Shown: positions 4,961 to 17,803, counted from the first letter of the stretch. The stretch is 64,000 nucleotides of DNA from Dictyostelium discoideum (GCA_000004695.1 CM000151.3:1024001-1088000); one strand, 5' to 3'. Numbers and translations are program-made. The notes: generated by a model not told the origin, from the letters alone.

Positions 4961-5265
4961 TTACAACCCTAATGTAGCACCAACAACAAGACCAAGTATT
5001 AAAACAACCCCACCAACTAATTCTAATAAACCACTAACCAATCCTGTTTTTTCGTTTGACCCTTGAATATTATTTGGAGGATTGATTGAATTGTTTATGC
5101 TATTTAAATTATTTTGACTTTTATTTTTATTTGTGATTTTTCCTAATGAAGAAATTGAGTCTATTATTTTTTAAAAAAAAAAAAAAAAAAATATTAGTTT
5201 ATTTTATTTTATTAAATAATAATAATGTGGTTTTTTTTATTTATTTAACCTACTAATTATTGTCA
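4961..5265 (-). CDS. HssA/2C/7E-like small Ser/Gly-rich protein (family member 1), 2 exons
   Basis: Exon 1 about 5253..5265 (ATGACAATAATTA|GTAGGT). Intron to ...aataatag| at about 5161. Exon 2 about 4961..5160. Spliced product: [70 protein letters not shown]. The M-T/A-I-L/I-x-S-I-S-S-L/I-G N-terminus is the family signature. Confidence 0.45.
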
Positions 5266-6562
5266 TTTTTATAAATATTTATAGTTTTAAAGTTTTAAAT
5301 TTATTAAATTAATTTATTAATTAAACAAGTTGTTTTTTTTTTTTTTAAATTTTTTTTTTTTTTTTATTCTGTTATTAACTCTATTTATAGAGTAAAGTAT
5401 TTAGATTAATTTACTTGTTTGCAAATTGTAAAAGGAATCATACTTTAAGAATTTAAGATTTTAATAAATTTATTAATTAATTAATTATTTTTTGTATAAA
5501 AATTAAAAAAATAACAAATACTACATAATATATTTTTTGTTGATTTATTAATAAATTATTATTTCCTTTTCAAATTTAAACCACCTAGCCTACGTTTCTT
5601 AAAAAAATAAAAAATAAAATAAATAAAAAAAAAATAAAAAAAAAAAATAAAAAAAAATAAAATTTGGTTTTTTTTTTTTTATTAATACAAATATAGGTGT
5701 TCTCCAAAAATGTAATTAATTAAAAAAAAAGCGAAAATATGATGGTTTTAAAGATATTTTAATTTGAAACTTTATTTACCAAATAAAGAATCATTAACAT
5801 TTTAAGCATTTCGGACAGTAGCAAATGTGTACCAAATTAGTAGATTAAAAAATTTTTATTTTCAATTAAAAACACCAAAATTTTAAACCTTCAAATACCA
5901 AAAAAAAAAAAAACATTAATACTATTGAAATTACCAAAAAAAGGTGAAAGGAAACACTCAAAAAAAAAAAAATTTTGAGATATACTAGTTAAAATAAATT
6001 AATTTTTTATTTTTTTATTTTTCTTTTTTTTTTTTTCAAGTAGATATTTTAATCTAAAAAGTTTCTATTTTTGAAATAAAAAAAAAAAAAAAAACAAACT
6101 GTTTTTCACTACAATCAAACGTTTGGATCCTGGAATCAGTTTTTTTATTTTTTTTTATTTTTTTTTTTATTTTTTTTTTTAAAATTTTAGGTGGATCTTA
6201 TTAAATAAATTTTCTTTAAGATTTCCGGAACACCTGCATATAAAATAAAATGTAAAAAGTTAGATATTTTTTTTTAAAAAAGTAAATTGATTGCAACATA
6301 TTACGAAAAAAAAAAAAAATCTAAAAAAAAAAAAATAAAAACAATTAAAAAAAAAATAAAAAACAATAAAAAAAAAAAAAAAAAAAAAAAAAAAAAAAAA
6401 AAAAAAAATTAAAAACTGTGAATAAAAAAAAAAATAAAAATTATTTGGTACAAGCCCCTGAAACAGAAAAAAAATAAAAAAATAAAAAAAAATAAAAAAA
6501 AATAAAAATTGTGTAAAAAAAAAAAAAAAAAAAAAAAAAAAATCCATCAACAAAAACCAAAA

Positions 6563-7954
6563 ATGGAATTGTTAAAAATAATTATAAAATTTTTTTTAAA
6601 ATTAAGAGTTCAAATTTTAGTTTTAGGTTTAATTGCTTGGGCTGTTGCATTCTCGATTGACAGAACATTGGTCGAAGATTATAGAAATAAAAGTGATGAT
6701 ATTTTTACAAATGAAAATAATTTTAAAATGGTTCGTACAAATAGAGAGAGTGCAGCATTTATAATATTAAGTATTTTTGAAACTGGGTTATTCGGACTTG
6801 GTATTGGATTTTTTGTATCATTAGGATTTAGAGTTTTTAAAATTAAAAATAAAATGTTAAGAAAAAGAATGATATGGTGTTGGGCTGCCATTAGTTACTT
6901 TTGTGTAACTTGGTGGCCACATTCAACTTCTCATTTCTTAATTTTAACAACTGGTAGATCACCAATTGATAATTATATAACAATGGAAACTACTTTCCAT
7001 TGGACACTTACATTTTGTTCAAGTACTTTAGCATATTTTCAATATGGTAAATAAATTATTAATATTAATTAAAAAAATGAGGGGACAGGGGTTTTTCATA
7101 CTACCCCTCTTTTTTTTCCAAAATTTTAAAAATTAAATATTAATTAATTTTTTTTTTTTTTTTTTTTTTTTTTTTTTTTCCAAGATTTAATTCAATTAAT
7201 GAGAGATGTTGCAATTATGAGGAAAAGAATGGTAGCAAGTGGAAAGGAAGAAGTTGATCCATTAAAACAAGAATGGTATAAGAATTATCATTATCATTCA
7301 ATTGTGATTGCAATTATAGTTTTAGCAATAGCAATACCTGTTGCATTTCATTTTGATCCACTTACAGATAAATTAGAAAGATATCAAAGATTCTTTTATG
7401 TAACATTTCATATTGTAAATTCAGCAGTTGCAGCAGTTGGTTTTGCATTTGCATATGCCGTTACTAGAACGATTTTACTTTTACCTCCATCACCCGGAAG
7501 AAAAGTTTCAATAGTTTCTTCCCTTGCAATTACATTTTTATTTATAATTCAATATATTCATCCAATGGTACATGTAAAAACTAAACCAAGTATGAAAAAT
7601 ACAATTGCAATTGATTTTGGATTTCATGTACCAATTGTTTTGGCAACTGGAATTTTAGCATTTTATCAATTTAGAATGATGGAATTAGCAACTGATGATA
7701 AATCTTCACTTTCAATAGCAGTTAGAATGAGAAGTGATTCAAAATCTGCTTCAAAAGGTTCATCTTTAAAATCTGCTGATAATGCTTCACAATCACAATC
7801 TTCAAATTCTTTCTCAACAAGTATTCAAATTGATCATTTAAAAACAAAAACTCCTCCTATTGATGAATCAATTAATAATAGTTCAATAGAAATGAAAGAT
7901 TTAGAAACCAATTCAAAAGATAATAATATTTCAATTTGTATCGAAAAAGAATAA
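6563..7954 (+). CDS. Multi-pass (about 7 TM) integral membrane protein of unknown function, 2 exons
   Basis: Exon 1 6563..7046 (true ATG is MELLKIII; the track's MCKKKK... start lies in a poly-A tract). Donor TATG|GTAAAT. T-rich intron ending ...ccaag|. Exon 2 7185..7954. Phases close as G+AT = Asp (...AYFQY-D-LIQLMRDVAIMRK...). Seven hydrophobic helices. Ser-rich C-terminal tail. Confidence 0.6.
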
Positions 7955-15721: not shown

Positions 15722-16055
15722 TTAATATCTACATGCACAACCACCACAAGAGCCACAACCACGAGAAATTGATATATTAATATCAATGTTAATTGAAGTT
15801 TGTCTAATTGGGAAAATACCACCACCAACACAACCAGTATAGCATTGAATACTATTTGAACTTTTTGATGAAGTGGAACCAGTTGAAGCAATCATTGATG
15901 ATTTTGAAGCAGATTTTAAATTACTAAGAGTTGAGATTGATTCTGTATTTTTTAAAAAAAAAAAAAAAAAAAAAAATAAGATAAAAGGAAATTGTAAGTA
16001 TTTAGTTATTTTTAAAAGATAGTTTTTTTTAAAAAAAAAACATACCAAATAACAT
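15722..16055 (-). CDS. HssA/2C/7E-like small Cys/Gly/Ser-rich protein (family member 3), 2 exons
   Basis: Exon 1 about 16046..16055 (ATGTTATTTG|GTATGT). Acceptor ...aatacag| at about 15943. Exon 2 15722..15942. Product: MLFESISTLSNLKSASKSSMIASTGSTSSKSSNSIQCYTGCVGGGIFPIRQTSINIDINISISRGCGSCGGCACRY*. Confidence 0.55.
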
Positions 16056-17428
16056 TTTAGATTTTAATTAGTTTTCTTTTTTTTTTTTTTTTTTTTTAAA
16101 AAAAACTTGGAATTTGATTATTAATTGTTTGTTTTTGAGTGAAATTGAATTTAAAATTTCAGACTATTTATATCAAAAAATGAACGTATGTTTTTTTAAA
16201 ATTTAAAATAAATTAATAAAAATTAATTGAATATGGAAATTGTAATTTACCAAAACAAAAAAAAAATATTAGATTTTAACGTTTTATTAAATTACAAGTT
16301 TTTATCATATGAGCAATTTTCCAAATATTTGTTCAAAAACAAAAATTACAATTAATAATATGATAGTAAAATGAAAGTGGGGGAGTTATTGTTTGTTTCT
16401 ATTATCATTTAGAAGAATAAAAATAAATATAAAATAAATAATTATAAATAGAAAAAAACCAGATAAACATGAAGAATATTAAACAATAATTTAACCCCCA
16501 CCGCTATAACATGTCACAAATTATGCTAATTTTTTTTAATAAATGATAGTTACTGAGCGTTTTTAACACACTTTGGTGTTTAATTAATAAAATAATCAAC
16601 TCACCCCCAAAAAAAAAAAAATTGATGAAAAAAATAAATGAAATGTATAGTTTATTTAGTTATTAAGTTTATAAATATATATTAAATAAAAATATTAAAA
16701 TTTACTGAAGAATTTTAATTATTAAAAATTTTATTTTAATTTTTTAAAGATGACTAAATGTACTTTTATTCACCCCAATTTTGAGTATTGTTGGTAGTTT
16801 AATAAATAATTTTTATGTTTAGTTTTATTTTTTAAACATTTTGAATCTTTTTTTTAACTAAAATTATAGAGAAAGGTTTTTATAGTTTATATTTCTTTTA
16901 AAATAATTTAAGAAAATTTATTAAAATAATTAGTAACATCCCAAAAAGTATTTTAAATAAAAATAATATTATTGCTTTTTGGGTAGAAATAAAAAAATTA
17001 ATTTTCCAGTTTGTATAGAAATTAAAAAAAAAAAAAAATATATATAATTATTAACACAAAAAGGTCGGGTCTAATTAATAAAAACTAGTAAAAATAAATC
17101 AGTTTATAAATATTTAAATCATGATTTTAATAAGGAATTGAAATTAATTACAATATTGGTTGTTTTTAAAATTTTTTCAAAGAATATTTATTTATTCAAA
17201 ATTAATTGTTTTTTTTTATTCTTTTTTTTTTTTTTTTTTTTTTTTTTTCATTTTTTTTTTTTCAAAATTAAAACAATAAAATCTAAATATGAAAATAATT
17301 TAAAAAATGTAAACTTTCTTTTATTTTAATAATTATGATTTATTTAATTTTCTATTTACAACCAGTCATAGTTATTATTTTAATATAAATATTATAATAT
17401 TTTTTTTTTTTTTTTATATATATTGATT

Positions 17429-17803
17429 TTAATTACAACCACCACCAACTAAACCATTAACAACACCACCAACAATACATAAGACACCACTAACGGCACC
17501 TCTATTTATAATAACACCACCAACAATTGGTCCTGTGGAATTTCCACAACCACTACTATTACTCATTGGACCATTGCATTGTATAATATTATAATTCATG
17601 TTTGATGATTGTGAAGAAATATTATTTATTATTAATTTTGAAGAGTTTGTTTTAATATTACCAATTGAACAAATAGATGCTATAATATTTTTTTTAATTT
17701 TAGAAAAAAATATTTATTAATATTTTGAAAGTTTTAAAATATATATAATAATTTTTTTTTTTATTTTTTATTAAAACTAAAGATATTTACCTAAAATTGC
17801 CAT
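17429..17803 (-). CDS. HssA/2C/7E-like small Cys/Gly/Ser-rich protein (family member 4), 2 exons
   Basis: Exon 1 17791..17803 (ATGGCAATTTTAG|GTAAAT). Acceptor ...attatag| at about 17680. Exon 2 17429..17679. Product: MAILASICSIGNIKTNSSKLIINNISSQSSNMNYNIIQCNGPMSNSSGCGNSTGPIVGGVIINRGAVSGVLCIVGGVVNGLVGGGCN*. It matches my recollection of HssA (MTILASISSIGN...IQCGG...G/V-rich tail). Confidence 0.6.

Follow-up and report, generated by a model that had tools for sequence, protein, structure and literature searches.

A 64,000-nt stretch of Dictyostelium discoideum chromosome 2 (GCA_000004695.1 CM000151.3:1024001-1088000; hereafter the window) contains, in the interval 4961-17803, four two-exon micro-genes that we designate g1 to g4. 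These are real genes; as small-protein genes of this chromosome they had all been annotated or published before. Together with a further pair just outside the interval (g5 and g6), they are very probably ordinary, separately transcribed two-exon genes, coding for proteins of 63-87 amino acids (aa) that belong to, or resemble, the hssA/2C/7E/sigN family. A first-pass annotation of this DNA had assigned all four genes of the interval to the family: the assignment is right for three of the four (g1, g3 and g4), and its essentials were already present in the reference annotation and in two papers. These papers describe a family of about 96 genes characterized by a first exon with an open reading frame (ORF) of only 13 nt (Vicente et al. 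2008, PMC2257962; Kin et al. 2018, PMC6198379). Since that first exon was described in 2008 and the genes have been annotated or published, the present result is an ordinary rediscovery with little discovery value: publications since 2008 cover the family, its micro-exon architecture and three or more of these loci, and the models stand in the reference annotation.

Six two-exon micro-genes in the window

All positions given here are window positions. A window position x corresponds to chr2 x + 1,024,000, an offset obtained from the gene coordinates in the supplementary table of Kin et al. 2018 for DDB_G0271890 (chr2 1033465-1034601), DDB_G0271898 (chr2 1042985-1043533) and DDB_G0271918, our g6 (chr2 1028566-1028884).

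The four spliced models of the interval are all readable from the sequence. g1 (4961..5266, minus strand) consists of a 13-nt exon 1 (5254..5266; ATGACAATAATTA) with the donor GTAGGT, a 93-nt intron (5161..5253) and an exon 2 at 4961..5160 including the stop codon, which together encode 70 aa. This model agrees with the one first proposed except for its end, which had been placed at 5265: the ATG begins at 5266, one base further. g2 (8903..9206, plus strand) has a 13-nt exon 1 (8903..8915), the donor GTAAGT, a 79-nt intron (8916..8994) and an exon 2 at 8995..9206, encoding 74 aa. g3 (15722..16055, minus strand) has a 10-nt exon 1 (16046..16055), the donor GTATGT, a 103-nt intron (15943..16045) and an exon 2 at 15722..15942, encoding 76 aa. 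g4 (17429..17803, minus strand) has a 13-nt exon 1 (17791..17803), the donor GTAAAT, a 111-nt intron (17680..17790) and an exon 2 at 17429..17679, encoding 87 aa.

The two genes that had been overlooked were recovered by a scan of six-frame segments with a hidden Markov model (HMM) and by a general micro-exon scan. g5 (3709..4016, minus strand) has the 13-nt exon 1 ATGTCAATCATTA, the donor GTATGT and a 116-nt intron; its 63-aa product reads MSIIKSILSISNN...NPLLDLVVFL. g6 (4566..4884, plus strand) has the 13-nt exon 1 ATGACAATTATTA, the donor GTATGT and a 124-nt intron; its 64-aa product reads MTIIKSISIIADK...NPLIDFNLIF. Beyond g1-g6, no further family members were found in the window by phmmer and HMM scans of all six-frame segments or by the micro-exon scan. 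Alternative acceptors for g1 and g6, and a model of g2 with a 10-nt exon 1 (73 aa), were rejected: their products are not found in the protein collection that was searched.

A common architecture runs through the six genes. Their introns are canonical GT..AG introns of 79-124 nt with a G+C content of 6-12%, versus 17-32% in the coding sequence (the window as a whole has 21%). The intron interrupts codon 5 (codon 4 in g3), and splicing joins M-x-I-x to an exon starting xSISS[LI]G. The exon-1/donor signature ATGDCAATHNNNNGTADRT occurs 5 times in the window, where shuffled sequences give an expectation of 0.02, and these sites are exactly five of the six micro-exon genes, the signature having been drawn post hoc from the very sites counted. 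Five of the six spliced products, all but that of g1, are identical to annotated proteins of strain AX4: g2 is DDB_G0271888 (Q86I89, uncharacterized), g3 is DDB_G0271934 ('Protein sigN132', Q55AF0), g4 is DDB_G0271896 (Q86I85), and g5 and g6 are the hypothetical proteins DDB_G0271930 and DDB_G0271918.

The genes had been described as hidden, which is true for naive ORF finding only, the reference annotation already having these models. As had been observed, an ORF track with a threshold of at least 60 aa shows just 15722..16048 (minus strand), a TTG-start ORF that runs through the intron of g3; fragments of g4 and g6 surface only when the threshold is lowered to at least 30 aa. ORF-based scans and some recent automated annotations do overlook or truncate such micro-exon genes. 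In another D. discoideum assembly (GCA_054883475.1; JBTAPE010000001.1, 2162..7636) the DNA of g5, g6, g1 and g2 is 100% identical and none of the four is called. The annotation of D. firmibasis reduces the g6 ortholog (7714..7988, CM069770.1) to a 36-aa fragment (7878..7988), the 13-nt exon 1 having been missed.

Membership in the hssA/2C/7E/sigN family

Proteins of this family are characterized by an N-terminus of the form M-T-I-[IL]-x-S-I-S-S-[IL]-G, a middle rich in Ser and Asn and a tail rich in Gly, Val and Cys. Their Pfam model is PF05710 ('Coiled'), which we take to be the model of the HssA/B family and which has a gathering cutoff of 21.4 bits. The published list comprises 96 sigN-related genes with proteins shorter than 120 aa, and the first-exon ORF is 13 nt long in 89 of these 96 and 10 nt long in a few (Vicente et al. 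2008, PMC2257962). Both sources place g1, g3 and g4 in the family. They score 21.8 bits (a marginal pass), 28.9 bits and 33.1 bits, respectively, and they fit the list rows of sigN122, sigN132 and sigN110 when the end-minus-start (off-by-one) convention of the table is allowed for; no row fits g2, g5 or g6. Like the listed genes, these three encode proteins of fewer than 120 aa by way of a 13-nt exon ORF (10 nt in sigN132), one short AT-rich intron and a second exon. Exon-1 length is 13 nt in g1, g2, g4, g5 and g6 and 10 nt in g3, as tabulated for sigN132.

At the level of residues the resemblance is graded. Identities to the 11-residue consensus MTI[IL]xSISS[IL]G number 11 in g1, 7 each in g2 and g6, 6 each in g4 and g5, and 4 in g3, which has a one-residue deletion. 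The opening motif that had been ascribed to all four products of the interval has no exact fit in g3, which opens MLFESISTLSN, and a lack of Cys, which had been noted for g2, holds for g1 as well. The composition is 9 Gly and 6 Cys in g3, 15 Gly and 5 Cys in g4, and 9 Gly with no Cys in g1; g2, g5 and g6 lack Cys and contain 1-5 Gly each. The members in the window are divergent, being listed at 32-40% identity to SigN1, and belong to neither Group 1 nor Group 2 of the sigN genes, which sit at chr2 819,699-829,288 and 2,242,478-2,248,753. The gloss 'suppressor of hybF', which had accompanied the family name, found no support in the family literature examined, and a search for DDB_G identifiers in the main texts of papers returned nothing relevant.

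Of the three, g3 and g4 have the Cys-bearing tails. The g3 product (76 aa, 6 Cys) ends in CGSCGGCACRY, and its gene fits the sigN132 row, 10//220 with an intron of 102 and 76 aa (Vicente 2008 Additional file 1, PMC2257962). The g4 product (87 aa) contains 15 Gly, 8 Val and 5 Cys, and its gene is matched by architecture to sigN110 (DDB0168566), tabulated as 13//250 with an intron of 110 and 87 aa in the same file. DDB0168566 was singled out in the Discussion of that paper as having a sequence very similar to the peptide used for the Group-2 antibody (Vicente 2008, PMC2257962). A word-index homology search with g4, a method that is poor for such low-complexity proteins, gave no match at E<=0.01 and only 4 candidates with shared words. 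Upstream of g4, at 18077..18088, lies a G-box-like run similar to TTGGGTGTGTGGG.

The product of g1 starts MTIINSISSLGK, continues with a Ser/Asn-rich middle and ends in a hydrophobic Gly/Val/Leu segment. Its architecture is that of the sigN122 row (chr 2, 13//199, intron 92, 70 aa), which corresponds to DDB0168559 (Vicente 2008 Additional file 1, PMC2257962); DDB_G0271920, with the synonym sigN122, is listed among the cup-specific genes in the k-means table of Kin 2018 (PMC6198379). Because the exact g1 product is not in the protein collection, the equation of g1 with DDB_G0271920 rests on three things: the architecture; the gene ID, which is adjacent to that of g6 (DDB_G0271918), a gene lying 77 bp from g1; and the RefSeq slot XP_645410, which is vacant between g6 (XP_645411) and DDB_G0271936 (XP_645409). 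We accordingly regard g1 as DDB_G0271920, matched by architecture and neighbourhood and without a sequence match; the idea that g1 is an unannotated gene was set aside, as sigN122/DDB_G0271920 fits on both counts.

g1 is most closely related to UPF0519 protein A (DDB_G0274343; 74% identity, E 4e-19), UPF0519 protein C (DDB_G0292598; 70% identity) and D. firmibasis RB653_010025. UPF0519 A, which is sigN137, and UPF0519 C are equal in length to g1 and share with it the start and, in the alignment, the C-terminal hydrophobic segment. The closest relatives of g1 map to other parts of chromosome 2 and to a 3,602,379-bp contig that we take to be chromosome 6. As sigN122, g1 gives a very late, cup-cell-specific transcript at a very high level: its expression is 719 at 24 h, and in cup cells it reaches 4853 transcripts per million (TPM), compared with 91 in stalk, 87 in spores and 1.8 in vegetative cells (Kin 2018, PMC6198379). 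The genes of UPF0519 A and C are likewise cup-specific, peak at 24 h and fall with sigN122 in k-means cluster 6 of that study; their cup-cell abundance is 52 and 74 TPM, versus the 4853 of sigN122.

Genes outside the family model and alternative readings

Several observations weigh against reading all six as ordinary protein-coding genes of, or resembling, this family. PF05710 has no match on g2 at E<=1; g5 and g6 have no Pfam match, and none to PF05710 at E<=10. The exact 70-aa product of g1 is missing from a 15-billion-protein collection that contains the other five products. The AlphaFold2 (AF2) model of g4 is uninformative, with a predicted local distance difference test score (pLDDT) of 39. 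g6 has zero reads in every sample in the available part of the RNA-seq table of Kin 2018. A frame-shifted hssA still suppresses the statA hypomorph, or its culmination defect (Kin et al. 2018, PMC6198379).

g2 is a conserved orphan: it has in common with the family only its first exon and about 11 N-terminal residues. The product is 49% Ser+Asn+Thr, with no Cys and no hydrophobic tail. It shares with the family the 13-nt exon, the phase of the intron and 7 of the 11 N-terminal residues; its exon 1 (ATGACAATAAGTG) agrees with that of g1 at 11 of 13 bases and likewise splits codon 5 in phase 1. On a local family HMM built from 11 sequences it scores 1.8 bits, a value reached by 197 of 2000 composition-preserving shuffles, and on a 15-column N-terminal profile it scores 4.4 bits and ranks 26th among 1233 sequences. 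These figures, with the lack of a PF05710 match, give no support to the proposal of the first-pass annotation that g2 may represent a divergent subfamily. The sole relative found is the D. firmibasis ortholog RB653_010044, which is 68% identical and has the same 13-nt exon; the C-terminal 17 residues of g2, VNSTVITESFKLLDNPW, are invariant in it. An exhaustive profile search of 1.84 billion representatives retrieved 6 proteins at E<=0.001, some of them extra family members and none linking g2 to the family.

g5 and g6 are divergently oriented paralogs (33% identity, E 9e-8 by BLASTP) which start MSIIKSI and MTIIKSI, respectively, and have NPL[LI]D at the C-terminus. Against the same local HMM g5 scores 15.4 bits, equalled by 0 of 2000 shuffles, and g6 scores 6.0 bits, equalled by 46 of 2000. 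On the N-terminal profile g6 reaches 15.0 and g5 11.2 bits, both above the maximum of 9.3 among 1230 six-frame background segments. In the 549-bp intergenic region from which the pair diverges, at 4469..4481, there is a G-box-like element, TTGGGTGTGTGGG, reminiscent of the G/C-rich motifs of GBF type that sigN promoters are reported to contain.

g2, g5 and g6 share the first-exon module, have conserved C-terminal tails of a different kind, and are most reasonably classed as orphans or distant relatives. One serious contender, if somewhat short of probable, is that they are unrelated orphan small-protein genes whose short first exon and Ser/Ile-rich N-terminus, in an AT-rich genome, are coincidental. 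Short first exons are common in Dictyostelium; unlike g1, g3 and g4, all three genes lie outside both the Pfam model and the published 96-gene list; the HMM score and profile rank of g2 are those expected of an outsider; and nothing in the family corresponds to their tails (VITESFKLLDNPW; NPL[LI]D). Coincidence, however, accommodates poorly the near-identity of the first exons of g2 and g1 with their common split of codon 5, the score of g5 above all of its 2000 shuffles, and the N-termini of g5 and g6 above the entire six-frame background. Moreover, the D. firmibasis ortholog of g6 reads MSIIKSISSVGEKS, nearer to the family consensus, and all three genes lie less than 5 kb from g1. It is possible, and we put it forward tentatively, that g2, g5 and g6 are unrecognised distant branches of the hssA/sigN superfamily, which kept the 13-nt exon and a module of about 10 N-terminal residues and carry new, species-conserved tails (...VITESFKLLDNPW; ...NPL[LI]D[LF]...). 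If this were true, what unites the family would be the exon-1/N-terminal module, which might act as a signal for targeting or processing. Pfam and the 2008 list would then understate both the size and the diversity of the family, which these three neighbouring hypothetical genes could slightly enlarge.

Whatever their affinity, four of the six genes have counterparts in D. firmibasis. On CM069770.1 a syntenic block contains the orthologs of g5, g6, g1 and g2, followed by those of an alpha/beta-hydrolase and a glutathione S-transferase (GST), their order matching that of the window. In all four small genes of the block, exon 1 is 13 nt long and the intron is in phase 1. The ratio of nonsynonymous to synonymous substitution rates (dN/dS; Nei-Gojobori method, based on small counts) is 0.23 for g5 (ortholog RB653_010026, 62 aa), 0.47 for g6, 0.21 for g1 (RB653_010025) and 0.18 for g2 (RB653_010044). 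Together, these comparisons argue that g1, g2, g5 and g6 are protein-coding genes under constraint, with purifying selection acting on their frames. g6, with zero reads in the available part of the expression table, is nevertheless conserved in D. firmibasis at a dN/dS of 0.47.

The first-pass annotation had also seen in the four genes a local expansion of the family, and a recent tandem expansion of one ancestral gene would account for six micro-exon genes within 14 kb; g5 and g6 form a divergent paralog pair, an arrangement that has been suggested as the unit ancestral to the sigN groups (Vicente 2008, PMC2257962). We consider such an expansion unlikely. The four products of the interval can barely be aligned: the best pair is g1-g4 (35% identity, E 0.008 by BLASTP), followed by g3-g4 (E 0.02), and g1 and g2 align over 11 residues only. 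Apart from g5-g6 (33%), the pairwise similarities among the six are marginal, at E 0.008 or worse. The nearest relatives of g1 are encoded elsewhere, and unrelated genes lie in between: the multi-transmembrane (multi-TM) protein gene DDB_G0271936, the alpha/beta hydrolase, the GST and an amino-acid permease. The order g5-g6-g1-g2, being present in D. firmibasis as well, is older than the divergence of the two species, and as the genes are mutually very divergent there has been no recent local expansion. The locus of g1-g6 is an old, loose neighbourhood.

A different kind of alternative is that the transcripts act mainly as RNAs, with the short ORFs incidental. As the frame-shifted hssA is still able to suppress the statA culmination defect, RNA may be the active form of one or more family members, and no phenotype resulted when 13 sigN genes and six other members of the family were knocked out. 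For the genes studied here this is distinctly improbable: dN/dS lies at 0.18-0.47, the frame, length and intron phase of g1, g2, g5 and g6 are kept between the two species, and the 17-residue C-terminus of g2 is fully conserved; antibody effects and the aggregation-suppressing SRCP1, a related small protein (both described below), also point to function as protein. That the spliced models are chance constructs or dead pseudogenes, as the zero reads of g6 in the available part of the table and the recent annotation that calls none of g5, g6, g1 and g2 might suggest, is essentially refuted by the exact matches to the reference annotation, the architecture and frame kept across species with dN/dS below 0.5, the very high expression of sigN122 and the signature count of 5 against 0.02 expected. 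The six are best read as ordinary two-exon genes.

Functional proposals and neighbouring genes

Members of the family are developmentally induced in prestalk or cup cells (Vicente 2008; Kin 2018). Mounds came apart when treated with an antibody against Group-2 SigN, which also stained small vesicles, and SigN1 has a predicted transmembrane segment. SRCP1 (serine-rich chaperone protein 1) of Dictyostelium, an 88-aa protein that confers resistance to polyglutamine aggregation, falls in the same large class of small-protein genes, by Panther classification (Wu et al. 2021). P0013, a family-like protein retrieved in our searches, has a Ser-rich and then Gly/Val-rich layout comparable to that of SRCP1.

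On this background we propose, with low to moderate confidence, that the products are largely disordered Ser/Asn-rich polypeptides, whose Gly/Val/Leu or Gly/Cys C-terminal segment would serve in membrane insertion or self-association, and which may have redundant roles in late prestalk-derived cells, whether in their vesicles, on their surface or in their matrix. The C-terminal segment of g1 in particular resembles a tail-anchor helix. Its Kyte-Doolittle maximum over 19 residues (2.49) falls on residues 52-70 of 70, at the extreme C-terminus, and AF2 predicts in the paralog UPF0519 A a helix at residues 40-66 with a pLDDT of 79-90. With low to moderate confidence, g1 may thus combine an N-terminal half that is disordered and rich in Ser and Asn with a hydrophobic helix at the C-terminus, a layout that would be compatible with a tail-anchored membrane protein. 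As in proteins of that type, there is no N-terminal hydrophobic stretch like a signal peptide, and a single hydrophobic segment of about 20-27 residues stands at the C-terminus. This is a functional analogy only, with no claim of homology, and the Gly-rich segment of g1 could instead drive self-association.

Among the genes interspersed with the micro-genes, DDB_G0271936 (6563..7046 + 7185..7954, plus strand) is one spliced gene with a phase-1 intron (7047..7184), encoding a 417-aa hypothetical multi-TM protein. The ORFs 6509..7054 and 7199..7954 are parts of this one gene, which is not found between the orthologs of g1 and g2 in D. firmibasis. DDB_G0271938 (1934..3238, minus strand) is labelled a pseudogene (DDB_G0271938_ps) in the table of Kin 2018; it has an intact ORF of 434 aa, with a weak B-box zinc-finger match of 20.8 bits that lies under the cutoff. 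No tRNA genes were found in the window. pscA (DDB_G0271902; 32759..34327, minus strand) encodes a 522-aa D-Ala-D-Ala carboxypeptidase of the peptidase S13 family (Pfam E 4e-60), a bacterial-type cell-wall enzyme in an amoeba genome.

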